DNA of 64,000 nt from Escherichia phage vB_EcoM_MM02. A model generated the notes under the pieces. The model was given only the letters and a program-made list of their open reading frames with translations. It was not told where the DNA came from and made no database searches. Positions 638 through 43,977 of the stretch are shown here, piece by piece. The DNA lies in sequence record MK373784.1. The stretch is one strand, 5' to 3'. Both the position numbers and the translations under genes were made by a program. Position 1 is the first letter of the stretch. Each line of letters starts with the position of its first letter.

Positions 638-940
638 TTATTTACCTTTAATTACTTTAGCTGCTTCGATAGCCGCTTGCTGAAGGTCATCCATAGACAT
701 ACCGAATTTAGAAGCAAAGTTATCAATTTTCTTTTCGACAGCATTCAAAGGCTTGGCCTGTTTACCTTCATTAGCGCCAGGAAGAGCGAGAATACGCTCT
801 TTGTCAATATAAAGGCTTACAAGTTTCTTACGGTCTTTATCGGACAAATCATGAAATGAATGAGCCTTTTTATTTATAGCGGCTTCTAATTTACCTGCAC
901 TCACTCGCGCTTCAGTAATAAATTCTTTATATGTTTTCAT
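638..940 (-). CDS. ipII: internal protein II-like, capsid-targeted
   Basis: 100 aa; N-terminus MKTYKEFITEA matches the T4 internal-protein capsid targeting sequence; same length as T4 IPII. Confidence 0.7.
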   Translation of the reverse strand: MKTYKEFITEARVSAGKLEAAINKKAHSFHDLSDKDRKKLVSLYIDKERILALPGANEGKQAKPLNAVEKKIDNFASKFGMSMDDLQQAAIEAAKVIKGK

Positions 941-971
941 TTTTTGTTTCCTTGTTTGTTTTGATAGAGTA

Positions 972-1001
972 ATTATACCATATTAATACTTAAGCGTAAA
1001 C
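972..1001 (-). promoter_or_regulatory. early-type promoter GTTTAC-N18-TGgTATAAT
   Basis: Minus strand reads GTTTACGCTTAAGTATTAATATGGTATAAT just upstream of ipII. Confidence 0.55.
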
Positions 1002-1004
1002 AAT

Positions 1005-1265
1005 TTAAGCTTTACCGCCAGAAATAATTCCGAAGTTGTTAAAATCGTATCCAATATCGTCAACATCTACTTTAGGATTTACTACAACATAAGCAATTTC
1101 ACTACGTTTTGCATAGGTGTTGATTTCTTTACCATCGCCACCTAAGAAAGAATACCCATTACGTTTTAATGAGCCAAAGTCTTCGGCATCACCAATGAAA
1201 GCTTTAACTTTAAATTTAGGACCTTTGGCATCTGCTTCAACGATAAATTCTTGATACATTTTCAT
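1005..1265 (-). CDS. internal protein-like, capsid targeting sequence
   Basis: 86 aa; N-terminus MKMYQEFIVEA; SD AGGAAAA before ATG. Confidence 0.55.
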   Translation of the reverse strand: MKMYQEFIVEADAKGPKFKVKAFIGDAEDFGSLKRNGYSFLGGDGKEINTYAKRSEIAYVVVNPKVDVDDIGYDFNNFGIISGGKA

Positions 1266-1271
1266 TTTTCC

Positions 1272-1685
1272 TTAGTAAATTGATTTACCATAGTATTTGT
1301 ACCAAGTCGGACGTTGAGCAATTTTTTCATCTAAGCGTGCTTGACTTATCGCAATGGACGCTTCGGACGGGACGTAATTATTACGAAATTCTACAGGAAT
1401 GTCGGAAATATCCTGGACAGTCGTGTCCTTGATTTTGAAACCACGTTTCAAGCATTCAGCGATTAGCTCGATTTGACGTAAACGTAAAAATTCGAGTTTG
1501 TCGTAAAAGAATGTTACGTGACCTGTGCCTAAGATAAATGTTGGAGAGATTTTAAAATCCTTTACACGTTTACCGTTTTGAACATGTTTACGGACTGCAC
1601 CAAATACGCGTGGTAATTCACGATACTCAGCCATAAGATGTTGGTCGGACAGTTCAGAAACAAGTGTTAAATTGATACGAGTCAT
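1272..1685 (-). CDS. denV: endonuclease V (pyrimidine dimer DNA glycosylase)
   Basis: [12 protein letters not shown]...[10 protein letters not shown] near-identical to T4 endoV as recalled; start set at MTRINL. Confidence 0.9.
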
Positions 1686-1743
1686 AATTTCCTCCAAGTA
1701 GTTGATGAATGTATAGTATCAAAACCCTTGGAGGAAGTAAACA

Positions 1744-2025
1744 CTATTTTTCTGAAGCGCCTGAAATATATTTTTCAAGACGTTGTTTCATCAGCGAGCC
1801 GTTCTTAGCGATTTCTTCTGGTTTATCGCACATACGCAACAAGGCTTCAAGCTTAGCGATATCGCTGGTACGTTCAAATTTGCGAGTATCTATCTTACTA
1901 GCAAGTTCAGAAATACGTGCTAATAGACTTTCAGCTTCAACCAAAGCTGCACCTAGCTTAGTTGCAAATGTGTCAGTAGCTTCGTTAAGAATAGATTCTG
2001 ATAAAAATTCACTATATGTTTTCAT
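1744..2025 (-). CDS. internal protein-like, capsid targeting sequence
   Basis: Start set at [10 protein letters not shown] (CTS motif); 93 aa; lies where T4 has ipIII but is shorter. Confidence 0.55.
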
Positions 2026-2510
2026 ATATACGCTTTCCAAGTTCCTGTTTTAAATGTTGAGATTACGCGTTTCGCGCGATTAGGTGTCTGACGATACCAT
2101 TTAGATTGGGCTAGATTTACTGCCGCTTCATCCCAACGTTTCTGTTGAAGCATACGAAGAGAATTAGTAAAACCGGCGACGCCTGATACACCCATTTGGA
2201 AGACCATATTGACCAATGCACACCGACGAACCGCATCTAAAGAATCATATACCGGTTTAAGTTTAGCATTACCCAAGATTCCGCGAACGGCTTTATCAAC
2301 GTCTTCATTAAATAGCTTTTCAGCCTCATCAAGGGTAATTGTACCGTTGCATTTACGTCCGATCATTCTGTCAAGTTCAGCTTTAGCTACGGCTAAAGAC
2401 GGGGTCTTTGTTACTAAATGGCCTATGCCAATAGTCCAAAAGCCTTCGGTGTCTTTGTATAAAGTCAGTCTAAGACCTTCGTCATTACGAAGCATTTCAA
2501 ATATATTCAT
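2022..2510 (-). CDS. e: lysozyme (endolysin)
   Basis: [15 protein letters not shown]...TGTWKAYI closely matches T4 lysozyme; start set at MNIFEM. Confidence 0.95.
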
Positions 2511-2544: not shown

Positions 2545-3003
2545 TTATAGGAGTGTAGTGAGCACCTTATATAATGATTTGCCCATTACATATTCCCATT
2601 GAGAAGGTTTAATTAAAGCGAATGCATCAAATTCAGGAATCTGTCGTCCGTCCGGGAATGCATGATAGGAATTACAAACACTGTTTCTGAATTGCTCGTG
2701 CTCTACAGGGATGGTATATAGGAACAGATGAATATTCTTATTGTCTGAGTAATGATGTTCACCTAGGTCTTTCAGGAAGGCAGGGTCATATTGTGTAAAC
2801 CCAGTTTCTTCTTCGCATTCACGAATAGCGGCTTCAATAGGAGATTCGCCAGGTTCGACACGGCCTTTAGGAATATCCCACCGATGAGCTAATGCACCTT
2901 TAGGACGAGAACCAGTTACACGGCCCATGAATAACTCTTTATCTTTTGACATGAAGATAATACCGGCTGATAGCTCTTTCACTTTATTTTTCTTACTCAT
3001 CAT
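2545..3003 (-). CDS. nudE: Nudix hydrolase
   Basis: 152 aa; Nudix box GRVEPGESPIEAAIRECEEETG; position next to e as in T4 (e.1). Confidence 0.8.
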   Translation of the reverse strand: MMSKKNKVKELSAGIIFMSKDKELFMGRVTGSRPKGALAHRWDIPKGRVEPGESPIEAAIRECEEETGFTQYDPAFLKDLGEHHYSDNKNIHLFLYTIPVEHEQFRNSVCNSYHAFPDGRQIPEFDAFALIKPSQWEYVMGKSLYKVLTTLL

Positions 3004-3229
3004 CTCGGTCCCATGATTTGGCCATTAATTCGGACATAAATTCTTCAATACGCGTTTCTTTAGATGGACTTTCACTATTAGAGACCGCAAGTTTGTAATC
3101 TGCAATAGGACAGAACATATCAAGGTCCATATTAAAATCGTCTTTGATTTTTTCTTCTGACACATCTTTATCGTATGTGTACAGATAACTATCACATGAT
3201 TCTGATTTAATGTAAATTGCTATACTCAT
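2993..3229 (-). CDS. hypothetical protein
   Basis: ORF; start chosen at MSIAIYIK with SD AGGAA. Confidence 0.4.
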   Translation of the reverse strand: MSIAIYIKSESCDSYLYTYDKDVSEEKIKDDFNMDLDMFCPIADYKLAVSNSESPSKETRIEEFMSELMAKSWDRDDE

Positions 3230-3717
3230 CTCAAATTCCTGCATTCGGTAATAAAACGTTCAACTTCATTATTCTTGGCCTTTATCTTGTCTTTACGTTC
3301 CTGTAAACTACTTTTAACAAGATTAATAATGATGCCTACAGTACCGCCGCCAATGATGCCACCAACAACACTTATGATAATAGATGCTAATAAGATAGCA
3401 ATAATATCAACAAAACCGAAAGAACTCACCTTAGTACTAAAAAACCATACCGACGGTACAAATATAATCCATCCTGTTATCCATTGGCACTTATTGAAAA
3501 ACTTTTCAAGCTCAGCTTGAGTTGTTCGTATTACTTCATCGATAGGTTGATATCCATTAATGTATCTGTTCACGATAATACCTGCTGGCTGGTCGATTTT
3601 AAATTCTTGGCAAATATGTTTCACTAAGTAGGATGGACATCCTGTCCAATCTACTGAATAGTATGAAATACCTTCGTTGCCATCGTCTATATTAGACCAA
3701 TATGTTTTGTTAATCAT
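3226..3717 (-). CDS. membrane protein, C-terminal FITECR motif
   Basis: 163 aa; Gly-rich TM segments (VVGGIIGGGTVGIIINL); C-terminal ...ERFITECRNLR. Confidence 0.5.
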   Translation of the reverse strand: MINKTYWSNIDDGNEGISYYSVDWTGCPSYLVKHICQEFKIDQPAGIIVNRYINGYQPIDEVIRTTQAELEKFFNKCQWITGWIIFVPSVWFFSTKVSSFGFVDIIAILLASIIISVVGGIIGGGTVGIIINLVKSSLQERKDKIKAKNNEVERFITECRNLR

Positions 3718-10270: not shown

Positions 10271-10735
10271 TTATTTAATTTGTTTAGCAGACCAGATACG
10301 GTCTTTAATAAGTTTTTGGATATCTTCAACATACTCAAGGCTATGAGCGTGAGGATTATCTTTGAAGCTATGTGCTCGTGCCAGTTTCTGGCCTTCTGTT
10401 TTGATTACTAAAAGCTCTTTAAGAATTGCTTCATACTTAGAAATAATTCCTTTGGCGATATTTTTTTCTTGAGCTGCTTTAGGGTCTGTTTTTGGCGCAG
10501 GTGCTTTACCTGTAGCTTTCTGGAACAATTCACCTGATGCAGCTAGGCTTTTAAAAACTCGGCTAACAGTATTAGCATTAGTAAAACCTTCGGCTTTAAA
10601 ATCTCTAATAAAACGGAAACGTTCTTCATCAGAGGCGTCTTTGTAAGAATATTTACCTGCTTGAATTGCTGCAATCGCAGCGGCTTTTACATCTGAACTA
10701 GATTGTTCAGTCAAAAATTCAGCGTATGATTTCAT
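10271..10735 (-). CDS. internal protein-like, capsid targeting sequence
   Basis: 154 aa; N-terminus MKSYAEFLTE fits the CTS pattern; SD AGGAAAAG. Confidence 0.55.
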   Translation of the reverse strand: MKSYAEFLTEQSSSDVKAAAIAAIQAGKYSYKDASDEERFRFIRDFKAEGFTNANTVSRVFKSLAASGELFQKATGKAPAPKTDPKAAQEKNIAKGIISKYEAILKELLVIKTEGQKLARAHSFKDNPHAHSLEYVEDIQKLIKDRIWSAKQIK

Positions 10736-13140: not shown

Positions 13141-13428
13141 TTACAGAAGAGTTTTTGCAATAATTTTAAGCTGAGCTACAGAAATATGCTTAGCTTTAAA
13201 CAGTGCAGTCTCTTCGGCCGGAGAGATAACAATAGTAGCGCCGTCTTTCTTAGCAGACCATCCATCCCCTAAGTAAACAGTACCTTTTACTTCTTCGCCG
13301 TCAACCAGACTAATCATTGGTTTACCCTCACGTCCTTTATTTGCTTTAATAACTTCGGAAGTAAGGGTTGCTTCGGTCAGAGTAGAAACGTTAGCAACAG
13401 GTGATATAAATTCTTTATAGGTTTTCAT
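13141..13428 (-). CDS. ipI: internal protein I-like, capsid-targeted
   Basis: 95 aa (same length as T4 IPI); N-terminus MKTYKEFISP; sits next to 57B as in T4. Confidence 0.6.
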   Translation of the reverse strand: MKTYKEFISPVANVSTLTEATLTSEVIKANKGREGKPMISLVDGEEVKGTVYLGDGWSAKKDGATIVISPAEETALFKAKHISVAQLKIIAKTLL

Positions 13429-42065: not shown

Positions 42066-42490
42066 TGTATCTTATCCCTGAATCTTATGAATTGGTACTC
42101 GAAAATGTCGAAGCACTTATTCCTGAAGCACAGGGCCGAATCGATGCATTGTCTTCTGCTCTCGATATTGACGATATAAATACTATTATCGAGAACATGC
42201 TTGAAACTGAAACGGATTTAGCTGTTGCAATGGCTTCCATTATTAATGAAGAACAGTTAAATGAGTTTATCGTTAAACATGTTTCTTCTCGTGGTGAAGT
42301 CACCCGCACTAAAGACCGTAAAACTCGTGAACGTAACGCGTTCCAAACAACTGGTCTTTCTAAAGCAAAACGTAGACAAATCGCTCGTAAGGTCGTTAAA
42401 GCTAAAAAAGCTAACCCTTCAGGCCAAGTTAAAGGCTTGCGTAAGCGTAAAAAAGCTCTTAAACGTCGTAAAGCATTAGGATTAAGCTAA
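42065..42490 (+). CDS. 68: prohead core protein gp68
   Basis: 141 aa; basic C-terminus; synteny. Confidence 0.8.
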
Positions 42491-43131
42491 TGAATAAACC
42501 CGAGTTACTTATTGAAACTTGGGGTCAACCCGGTGAGATTATTGATGGCGTTCCAATGTTGGAATCTCATGATGGAAAAGATTCTGGCTTAAAACCAGGG
42601 CTTTATATAGAAGGTATTTTTCTTCAGGCAGAGGTTGTTAACCGAAATAAACGTTTATATCCTAAACGCGTTTTGGAAAAAGCAGTAAGTGACTATATTA
42701 AAGAACAAGTCGCAACCAAACAAGCCCTTGGAGAATTAAACCATCCACCTCGTGCAAATGTTGACCCTATGCAAGCCGCTATCATTATTGAAGATATGTG
42801 GTGGAAAGGAAACGATGTATATGGACGTGCTAGAATTATTGAAGGCGACCATGGTCCCGGTGATAAATTAGCTGCTAATATACGAGCTGGTTGGATTCCA
42901 GGTGTTTCCTCTCGTGGTCTTGGTTCTTTAACCGACACCAATAAAGGGTACCGTATCGTGAACGAAGGATTTAAATTAACCGTCGGTGTAGATGCCGTAT
43001 GGGGACCTTCTGCTCCAGATGCTTGGGTTACTCCTAAACAAATATCAGAATCAGAAAATTCGGTGGAAATCACCAAAAACAGTGCTGATGAAGCATTTAA
43101 AGCTCTCGCAGAGAGTTTAAAAGCATTATAA
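42490..43131 (+). CDS. 21: prohead core protease
   Basis: 213 aa (T4 gp21 is 212); synteny. Confidence 0.9.
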   Translation: MNKPELLIETWGQPGEIIDGVPMLESHDGKDSGLKPGLYIEGIFLQAEVVNRNKRLYPKRVLEKAVSDYIKEQVATKQALGELNHPPRANVDPMQAAIIIEDMWWKGNDVYGRARIIEGDHGPGDKLAANIRAGWIPGVSSRGLGSLTDTNKGYRIVNEGFKLTVGVDAVWGPSAPDAWVTPKQISESENSVEITKNSADEAFKALAESLKAL

Positions 43132-43164: not shown

Positions 43165-43977
43165 ATGATCAAAGAACAACTTTTGAAAGAAGCTCAGAAC
43201 ATCGAGACTTCAGTTGCTCTTAATAGTGTTTTCGAATCAGTAGAACTGTCTCCGGACGTTAAAGCTAATTTCAGCACTGTATTCGAAGCCACCGTTAAGC
43301 AGGAAGCAGTCAAACTGGCTGAATCTCATATCAAAGCCATCGCCGAAAAAGCCGAAGAAGAAGTTGAAAAGGCTAAAGAAGATGCTGAAGAGAAAGCTGA
43401 TAAAAAATTGGCTGAACAAGCTTCTAAATTCCTAGACCATCTTGCAAAAGAATGGCTCGCAGAAAACCAAATCGCAGTTGATAAAGGCATTAAAGCTGAT
43501 TTGTTCGAATCCATGCTTGGTGGTCTGAAAGAACTGTTTGTTGAACATAACGTTGTTGTTCCAGAAGAATCTGTAGATGTTGTAGCAGAAATGGAAGAAG
43601 AGCTGGCCGAACATAAAGAAGAAACCGCTCGTTTGTTCGAAGAAGTTACCAAACGTGATGCATATATCAATTACGTTCAGCGTGAAACCGCTATTAATGA
43701 AAGCGTAAAAGACCTGACTGAATCTCAGAAAGAAAAAGTTATTGGCCTGGTTGAAGGTATGGATTATTCTGACGCATTTGGTACTAAGTTAACTGCTATT
43801 GTAGAAATGGTTAAAGGTTCTACTAAAGAAGAAGCCGCTATTACCGAAAGTATAAATACAGTTGACAATGACGCTGCCGGTCTTAATTTTATTGCCGAAG
43901 CAGTTGACACTACCACAACTCAGGTAGAACAGAATTCTAATGTAAGTTTATATGCGAAAGTCGCATCTCGTTTCTAA
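43165..43977 (+). CDS. 22: prohead core scaffolding protein
   Basis: 270 aa acidic, helix-rich protein (T4 gp22 is 269). Confidence 0.9.
   Translation: MIKEQLLKEAQNIETSVALNSVFESVELSPDVKANFSTVFEATVKQEAVKLAESHIKAIAEKAEEEVEKAKEDAEEKADKKLAEQASKFLDHLAKEWLAENQIAVDKGIKADLFESMLGGLKELFVEHNVVVPEESVDVVAEMEEELAEHKEETARLFEEVTKRDAYINYVQRETAINESVKDLTESQKEKVIGLVEGMDYSDAFGTKLTAIVEMVKGSTKEEAAITESINTVDNDAAGLNFIAEAVDTTTTQVEQNSNVSLYAKVASRF

Follow-up and report, generated by a model that had tools for sequence, protein, structure and literature searches.

Three tagged small genes around denV in a Mosigvirus: known internal-protein families with a plausible anti-defence role

What are the three small genes that flank denV in an RB69-like T-even phage of the genus Mosigvirus, and could their products be carried in the head and injected with the DNA as counter-measures against host defence? 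The window (the whole stretch of DNA analysed here, 64 kb in length) shares 97% identity across its first 4.5 kb with Shigella phage Shf125875 and likewise with many E. coli phages. Genes in this part of the window run on the minus strand in the order nudE, e, a 93-aa ORF, denV, an 86-aa ORF, a 100-aa ORF and vs.8. The preliminary description of this DNA had delimited a locus, 638-2025, that extends exactly from the stop codon of the 100-aa gene to the start codon of the 93-aa gene, and the three tagged genes it placed around denV are indeed found there, on the minus strand, at precisely 638-940, 1005-1265 and 1744-2025. The features that enter the argument are the following (arrows mark predicted cleavage).

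2545-3003, minus strand: nudE, upstream of e
2022-2510, minus strand: e, lysozyme (Pfam Phage_lysozyme, 5.8e-14; annotated in relatives), the upstream border of the locus
1744-2025, minus strand: 93-aa internal protein of the Ip5 family by sequence, RB69ORF127c (phrog_3499, 2e-46)
1981-2025, minus strand: predicted propeptide of the 93-aa protein; two sites of the gp21 type, LSE10↓S and LNE15↓A (from the sequence)
1272-1685, minus strand: denV, endonuclease V, the conserved gene flanked by the cassettes (Pyr_excise PF03013, 4.8e-14; phrog_1183, 5e-62)
1005-1265, minus strand: 86-aa internal-protein candidate of the RB69ORF125c family (phrog_2667, 'internal head protein')
1236-1265, minus strand: capsid targeting sequence of the 86-aa protein, MKMYQEFIVE followed by A (from the sequence)
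972-1000, minus strand: promoter-like site of the early/middle type, upstream of ipII (TTTACG, 17 nt, TGgTATAAT; part of GTTTAC...)
638-940, minus strand: ipII orthologue, 100 aa (phrog_7857, 1.2e-54, full length)
911-940, minus strand: capsid targeting sequence of the 100-aa protein, MKTYKEFITE followed by A (from the sequence)
42490-43131, plus strand: gp21 prohead protease, which would be expected to cut off the tags (PF03420 Peptidase_S77, 2.9e-107)
43165-43977, plus strand: gp22 scaffolding core protein, expected to take in the tagged proteins (PF25623 T4_CASP, 1.4e-89)

The ORF list and the sequence agree that all three proteins begin MK[T/M]YxEF[I/L]xE (MKTYKEFITEA... in the 100-aa protein, MKMYQEFIVEA... 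in the 86-aa protein), which bears out both the N-termini quoted in the preliminary description and their assignment to the capsid targeting tag of T4: Tyr4, Phe7, [I/L]8 and Glu10 are present in 3/3 proteins. According to the work of Mullaney & Black (1996), as summarised in PMC9026906, targeting is set by residues 4 and 7 and processing by residues 8 and 10; in T4 the first 10 residues alone are enough for the packaging of foreign proteins (PMC9026906). The [L/I]-x-Glu motif typical of gp21 sites stands at the end of each tag, as ITE10↓A in the 100-aa protein, as IVE10↓A in the 86-aa protein and as the two sites of the 93-aa propeptide. The frequency of the tag motif is far above chance: a six-frame scan with the pattern M[KR]x[YF]x[ED][FYW][ILVM], controlled by 200 shuffles, gave 5 matches in the 64 kb, 5/5 at the starts of minus-strand ORFs, compared with a mean of 0.03 and a maximum of 1 in the shuffles, and the strict form, MKxYxEF[IL]xE, gave 4 matches vs none. 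The prohead protease and the scaffolding core on which the tag depends are encoded by the same phage, and the portal gp20 as well as gp21, gp22, gp23 and gp24 all lie within the window. We also considered codon identity of the tag-coding DNA across the five genes as evidence of recombination and found it uninformative because the shared codons are merely the preferred, AT-rich ones.

The two remaining matches of the scan lie outside the locus. One is a true IPI orthologue (13141-13428, minus strand; Pfam IPI_T4, 1.3e-50; phrog_4363), encoded by a phage of a genus whose DNA is arabinosylated, not glucosylated; Pro at position 10 means that its first cleavage site is lost, and it keeps only the site LTE19↓A, which would give the same mature N-terminus as that of T4 IPI*. 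The other is a 154-aa tagged ORF (10271-10735, minus strand; MKSYAEFLTE↓QSS...) with a predicted mature pI of 9.6 and no Pfam match, which PHROGs does not annotate as an internal protein because the family to which it belongs, phrog_2280, is labelled 'unknown function'.

The 100-aa protein is IPII. Its resemblance to T4 IPII, already proposed in the preliminary description, amounts to 93% identity, the match to phrog_7857 ('internal virion protein') spans positions 1-100/100, and the homologue carries the annotation IpII in NC_025437 and OL960576. Cleavage after ITE10↓A is predicted to leave a mature protein of 90 aa that is basic (pI 9.7). The T4 protein has been reported to inhibit the fused GmrSD/BrxU type IV restriction enzyme and to abolish defence by the fused GmrSD of ECOR21, which IpI and Ocr did not (2023 preprint, 10.1101/2023.04.06.535777). 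By orthology, the 100-aa protein most likely inhibits type IV enzymes of the fused GmrSD/BrxU type, and we regard an anti-defence role for it as probable. Mosigvirus DNA contains mono- and di-arabinosylated 5-hydroxy-dC, and BrxU, a member of the GmrSD family, cuts this arabinosylated DNA and restricts a Mosigvirus (PMC13390438), so that an anti-GmrSD protein is relevant to this genus too; by the same token, since that Mosigvirus is still sensitive to BrxU, any protection by IPII would not be universal, provided that the phage in question carries ipII.

Alignment of the 93-aa protein with T2 Ip5, Bas37_0261 and others yields 48-52% identity (48% for Bas37_0261) and 32 invariant columns, and UniRef names the relatives Ip5; judged by sequence, then, the protein is a member of the Ip5 family, which is named for T2 and RB70 and is present in 496 sequenced phage records. 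Glu15, the residue at the second predicted site, does not vary in the first alignment of the family and hardly varies in the second; position 10, by contrast, is Glu in the 93-aa protein but Lys in T2 Ip5. AlphaFold2 predicts a bundle of three helices (pLDDT 77), and the mature protein is near neutral (pI 6.3, with equal numbers of acidic and basic residues). An Ocr/ArdA-type DNA mimic was ruled out as the identity of the Ip5 family by charge, the protein being not strongly acidic.

A host-specific phenotype is on record for this family. According to the HIDEN-SEQ tables (10.1101/2025.11.20.689424), transposon insertions in bas37_0261 became about four times rarer on CFT073 (log2FC -2.09, adjusted p 0) and showed no depletion on CFE299 or CFE303 (-0.01 each). 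The effect is thus limited to CFT073 among the three clinical strains, and the authors neither discussed it nor followed it up. Polarity may account for part of it, given the score of -1.56 that the same tables list on CFT073 for 57B, the gene upstream. The gene bas37_0261 (Bas37/KarlGJung, MZ501089, 1364-1621) is annotated 'internal head protein ipI', yet its product belongs by sequence to the Ip5 family and not to IPI. An Ip5-family protein identical to Bas37_0261, orf160, was within the 200-gene counter-defence screen on ECOR strains and is absent from the genes reported there with a phenotype; the list of that screen also contains Ip7, IpII and IpIII, and no member of the 86-aa family (10.1101/2023.04.06.535777).

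The 86-aa protein corresponds to RB69ORF125c, with phrog_2667 ('internal head protein') as its family, and cleavage after IVE10↓A is predicted to leave 76 aa that are near neutral (pI 6.4, acidic and basic residues again equal in number). From the sequence searches, the protein appears to have very few relatives: a word-indexed homologue search returned 12 clusters, all from T-even phages, and an exhaustive HMMER search with the mature region against 1.84 billion representatives gave 6 matches. A new relative (P0025), 43% identical and also tagged, is encoded on a 521-bp contig without useful context. A WG-repeat protein (P0027, PF14903; match E 4e-4) was rejected as a relative because the 86-aa protein has no Pfam match at E<=1 and its predicted model has an alpha/beta fold, not one of repeated beta-hairpins. 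The fold search with this model found no match to a solved fold, and the solved structure of IPI* was absent among the top 60.

The RB69ORF125c family is represented in 217 sequenced phage records. The first ATG is supported as the start of the gene because the homologues begin MKTYQEF or MKTYPEF. Several GenBank records nevertheless start it at the second ATG (MYQEF...; mogra 3124-3378, SA79RD 1844-2098), an annotation in which the tag loses its first two residues and the internal-protein character of the gene is concealed, and the vB_EQ1 record (H40) labels it endonuclease V. An in-frame deletion allele of 36-38 aa has a PHROG of its own, phrog_35655, and frameshifted copies exist as well. 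In the recurrent deletion (P0011, P0026 and phage JS09, H69), about 48 codons that lie between GPK(F) and PK(V)DVDD are missing, a loss that may be mediated by the short CCTAAA microhomology at the two ends. About 14 of the 217 records fall below 60% identity, and the two that were inspected (H68, H69) cover only 114 nt, as would fit the deletion allele.

So could the bodies of the 86- and 93-aa proteins be related to the classical T4 internal proteins? The searches speak against this. In BLASTP against T4 IPIII, both proteins align over residues 1-11 only, and homology to IPIII was rejected since it is the tag alone that aligns; Pfam IPI_T4 (PF11634) matches none of the three proteins of the locus, on which ground homology of the two to T4 IPI was rejected too; and neither of the two matches phrog_7857, the IPII family. 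The McrBC inhibitor Bas37_0260 was dismissed as a homologue of either protein, again because only the tag aligns. NCBIfam gave no matches, sequence search against solved structures gave nothing significant (best E-values 0.047 and 0.037), and domain, fold and structure searches detected no enzymatic domain or motif in either body. A DNA mimic of the Ocr/ArdA kind would be a strongly acidic protein with a DNA-like surface, and neither of the two is of this type.

The view of the preliminary description that these two bodies are unrelated to T4 IPI, IPII and IPIII is therefore upheld. The clear orthology to IPII or IPIII that it had named as contrary evidence holds for the 100-aa protein, as IPII, but not for the other two, which have nothing in common with IPIII beyond the tag. 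The profile searches that it had proposed matched all three full proteins (phrog_7857, phrog_2667, phrog_3499); the mature region of the 86-aa protein gave the 6 matches mentioned above. What does not survive is the label 'novel': by sequence, the 93-aa protein falls into the Ip5 family and the 86-aa protein is RB69ORF125c, and the RefSeq records of near-identical phages already annotate all three as internal virion or head proteins. The three genes belong to already known internal-protein families, for which the textbook interpretation is the ordinary one, and they do not make up a new kind of system; the Ip5 family was named in the 1990s and has already been screened, and the 100-aa protein is the orthologue of a characterised inhibitor. 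T-even internal proteins have been described as highly diverse, with only the tag in common, and in the reviews concerned the tagged internal proteins are taken to counter restriction that depends on DNA modification (PMC3012670, citing Repoila 1994; PMC9026906). An injected anti-defence role for the 86- and 93-aa proteins is plausible, with no contrary evidence in the present data, but the idea is not new.

The genomic context is informative in its own right. Tagged genes occupy two slots, one between e and denV and the other between denV and vs.8, the contents of which differ between the T-even genera. T4 has the order e, ipIII, ipII, denV; the Gaprivervirus P896 has e, IPII, denV, an 86-aa homologue and a different, 99-aa tagged gene; and the Gelderlandvirus STP4-a has e, a 110-aa tagged gene, denV, a 158-aa tagged gene, an 86-aa homologue and an IPIII-like gene. 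Even within Mosigvirus, what lies between ipII and the 86-aa gene varies: nothing in the present phage, an IPIII orthologue in mogra, and in SA79RD (as well as in RB69, according to its annotation) the 104-aa tagged gene RB69ORF124c. Tagged genes on both sides of denV are thus not peculiar to this phage, and given that their contents vary, both slots together can be seen as a second variable internal-protein locus beside the classical ipI locus. The deletion and frameshift alleles indicate that the 86-aa gene behaves as a dispensable accessory gene, and the tagged genes in general look accessory and cassette-like.

Expression of these genes appears to be tied to that of their neighbours. There is no TATAAATA late promoter directly upstream of the 100-, 86- or 93-aa gene, the sole one in the region being located inside ipII, and for this reason the timing of all three has to be deduced from the adjacent genes. 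The 86-aa gene starts 6 nt after denV, and e and the 93-aa gene share an ATGA in which the stop of the former overlaps the start of the latter, so that the expression of these two would follow that of denV and e, respectively; e and the 93-aa gene are probably co-transcribed. The best promoter consensus match in the region is the site upstream of ipII (10/12, with an extended -10), which is to be read as a consensus match only. The denV leader (1680-1745, minus strand) folds into a predicted hairpin of -19.3 kcal/mol (z -3.5), in which the GGAGG ribosome-binding site pairs with an upstream UUCCUCCAAG and inside which a GTTTAC...TACTAT early-promoter-like element is found. In T4 gene e, the leader hides the ribosome-binding site in read-through transcripts, and the site is exposed in locally initiated ones; the denV leader would work in the same manner, its ribosome-binding site being hidden in read-through transcripts and exposed in those initiated locally. 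A similar CTCCTAG/CTTGGAGG arrangement is seen upstream of vs.8, at about 545-630.

How can all these observations be accommodated in a single scenario? The reading that we favour, and consider rather likely, is that the three genes encode internal head proteins of Mosigvirus which are packaged, injected and bind host defence factors stoichiometrically. If T4 is a valid guide, the tag would bring each of the three proteins into the prohead core, gp21 would cut after Glu10 and, in the 93-aa protein, probably also after Glu15, and the mature proteins of about 8-10 kDa would remain inside the head, each in many copies, until they are delivered into the host along with the DNA. By analogy, each of them might then bind and block one host factor that attacks the incoming sugar-modified DNA, the 93-aa (Ip5) and 86-aa (RB69ORF125c) proteins most likely inhibiting other strain-specific first-line defences. 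Both of these are small, single-domain proteins whose predicted folds are non-enzymatic. Several precedents are available: IPI* inhibits GmrS/GmrD (PMC3012670), ECOR17 is a host on which IPIII is required, and host-expressed IPIII functions even when the tag is missing (PMC9391042), and the tagged Bas37_0260 counters McrBC (preprint 10.1101/2025.11.20.689424). The packaging step is, in our view, highly probable, although a literature search recovered no virion proteomics for any Mosigvirus internal protein, nor any named studies or virion proteomics of RB69ORF124c, 125c or 127c; for the 86- and 93-aa proteins, packaging is predicted from the sequence. For the anti-defence role of each of these two proteins, we arrive at a roughly even judgement. 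Points that weigh against the favoured reading are the lack of a late promoter directly upstream of the three genes, the absence of orf160 from the genes with a reported phenotype, the possible polarity of the CFT073 effect and the BrxU sensitivity of a Mosigvirus.

A mainly structural or physical role in the head, where the proteins would neutralise DNA charge or aid core and head assembly or DNA ejection with no specific host target, can be contrasted with this reading. The internal proteins of T4 are described as basic, with an affinity for DNA when salt is low, and without IPIII heads are assembled at half the normal rate and bursts are smaller (PMC9026906); lysine residues in internal proteins make contact with the phosphates of DNA (PMC3012670); and the IPII orthologue, with its mature pI of 9.7, would fit such a role. 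The near-neutral mature 86- and 93-aa proteins (pI 6.4 and 6.3), however, do not, and T4 ipI, ipII and ipIII are non-essential on K-12 (PMC9026906), and IpII, as well as IPIII deprived of its tag, act in the host in the absence of any virion (10.1101/2023.04.06.535777; PMC9391042). Moreover, a generic physical role leaves unexplained the cassette-like turnover between phages and the deletion alleles, and we therefore consider it unlikely.

We find it similarly unlikely that the three proteins are injected factors of host takeover, reprogramming transcription, metabolism or the envelope early in infection in the manner of Alt: all small tagged proteins with a function assigned so far counter restriction or defence, the lack of any enzymatic domain or motif in the 86- and 93-aa bodies argues against such activities, and the phenotype of the Ip5 family is confined to one host strain rather than being general. 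To be sure, Alt itself serves takeover and is packaged, processed and injected (PMC9026906), and any effector that acts early would benefit from entering the cell before genes are expressed. Finally, the 86-aa protein, the 93-aa protein or both might not be packaged at all, the tag-like N-terminus being a gene-start module spread by recombination, and might act only inside the cell that produces them. This would agree with the lack of a late-promoter consensus directly upstream, with the dependence of the two genes on denV and e for expression, and with the records in which the 86-aa gene is annotated from the second ATG, without the first two tag residues. We deem it very unlikely, given that residues 4, 7, 8 and 10 are exactly those required for targeting and processing, that ten such residues suffice in T4 to package a foreign protein (PMC9026906), and that distant homologues retain the tag although their bodies diverge to 36-48% identity, a pattern indicative of selection on the tag itself.

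Returning to the reading of the three proteins as injected binders of defence factors, a more far-reaching form can be contemplated, if only tentatively. Here, the 86-aa protein would be an injected inhibitor with a fold new to solved structures, directed perhaps at a type IV nuclease variant or at a DNA glycosylase that attacks sugar-modified T-even DNA; the 93-aa protein would be directed against a separate system carried by strains such as CFT073; and the injected anti-defence set would have five members, namely the 86-aa, 93-aa, IPII and IPI proteins and the 154-aa tagged protein. Internal proteins act before phage gene expression and so would help decide which wild strains a T-even phage infects. 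Host range matters for the choice of therapeutic phages, a group in which Mosigvirus and Tequatrovirus isolates are numerous. Each of IPI, IPII, IPIII and Bas37_0260 has by now been given a target or a host-specific phenotype, in contrast to the Ip5 and RB69ORF125c families. In practical terms, the analysis yields a short list of testable proteins with predicted mature N-termini, and CFT073 as a lead host for the Ip5 family.

It remains to compare the locus with the known systems. The 100-aa protein has the same tag, cleavage site and size of 100 aa as T4 IPII, but its gene lies on the opposite side of denV: the order is e-ipIII-ipII-denV in T4 and e-ip93-denV-ip86-ipII here. T4 DNA is glucosylated, whereas that of the genus to which this phage belongs is arabinosylated (PMC13390438), and because of this difference the relevant enzyme variants might not be those of T4. 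With Ip5 of T2, RB70, PP01 and Bas37 (phrog_3499), the 93-aa protein shows identity across the whole mature region, common blocks (KLGxALxEAExLxxRIxEL and EIAKNG), an invariant or nearly invariant Cys66, and the same kind of tag with the conserved [I/L]-x-Glu15 site; it differs in a C-terminus that is 8 residues longer and in the extra Glu10 site, and also in position, given that the Tequatrovirus Ip5 genes lie at the ipI locus beside 57B whereas the 93-aa gene is located between e and denV and is translationally coupled to e. Bas37_0260, which has been shown genetically to counter the type IV system McrBC (HIDEN-SEQ preprint, 10.1101/2025.11.20.689424), is a small (77 aa), tagged T-even protein encoded at the ipI locus, with a body unrelated to IPI, IPII and IPIII; it is homologous to none of the three proteins described here and has only the first 10-15 residues in common with the 86-aa protein. 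T4 IPI* (PF11634), the GmrS/GmrD inhibitor, has no sequence similarity to the 86- or the 93-aa protein but is similar to them in mature size (76 aa) and in the kind of delivery, that is, a tag, processing by gp21 and injection, and would thus serve as the model for the action of both.
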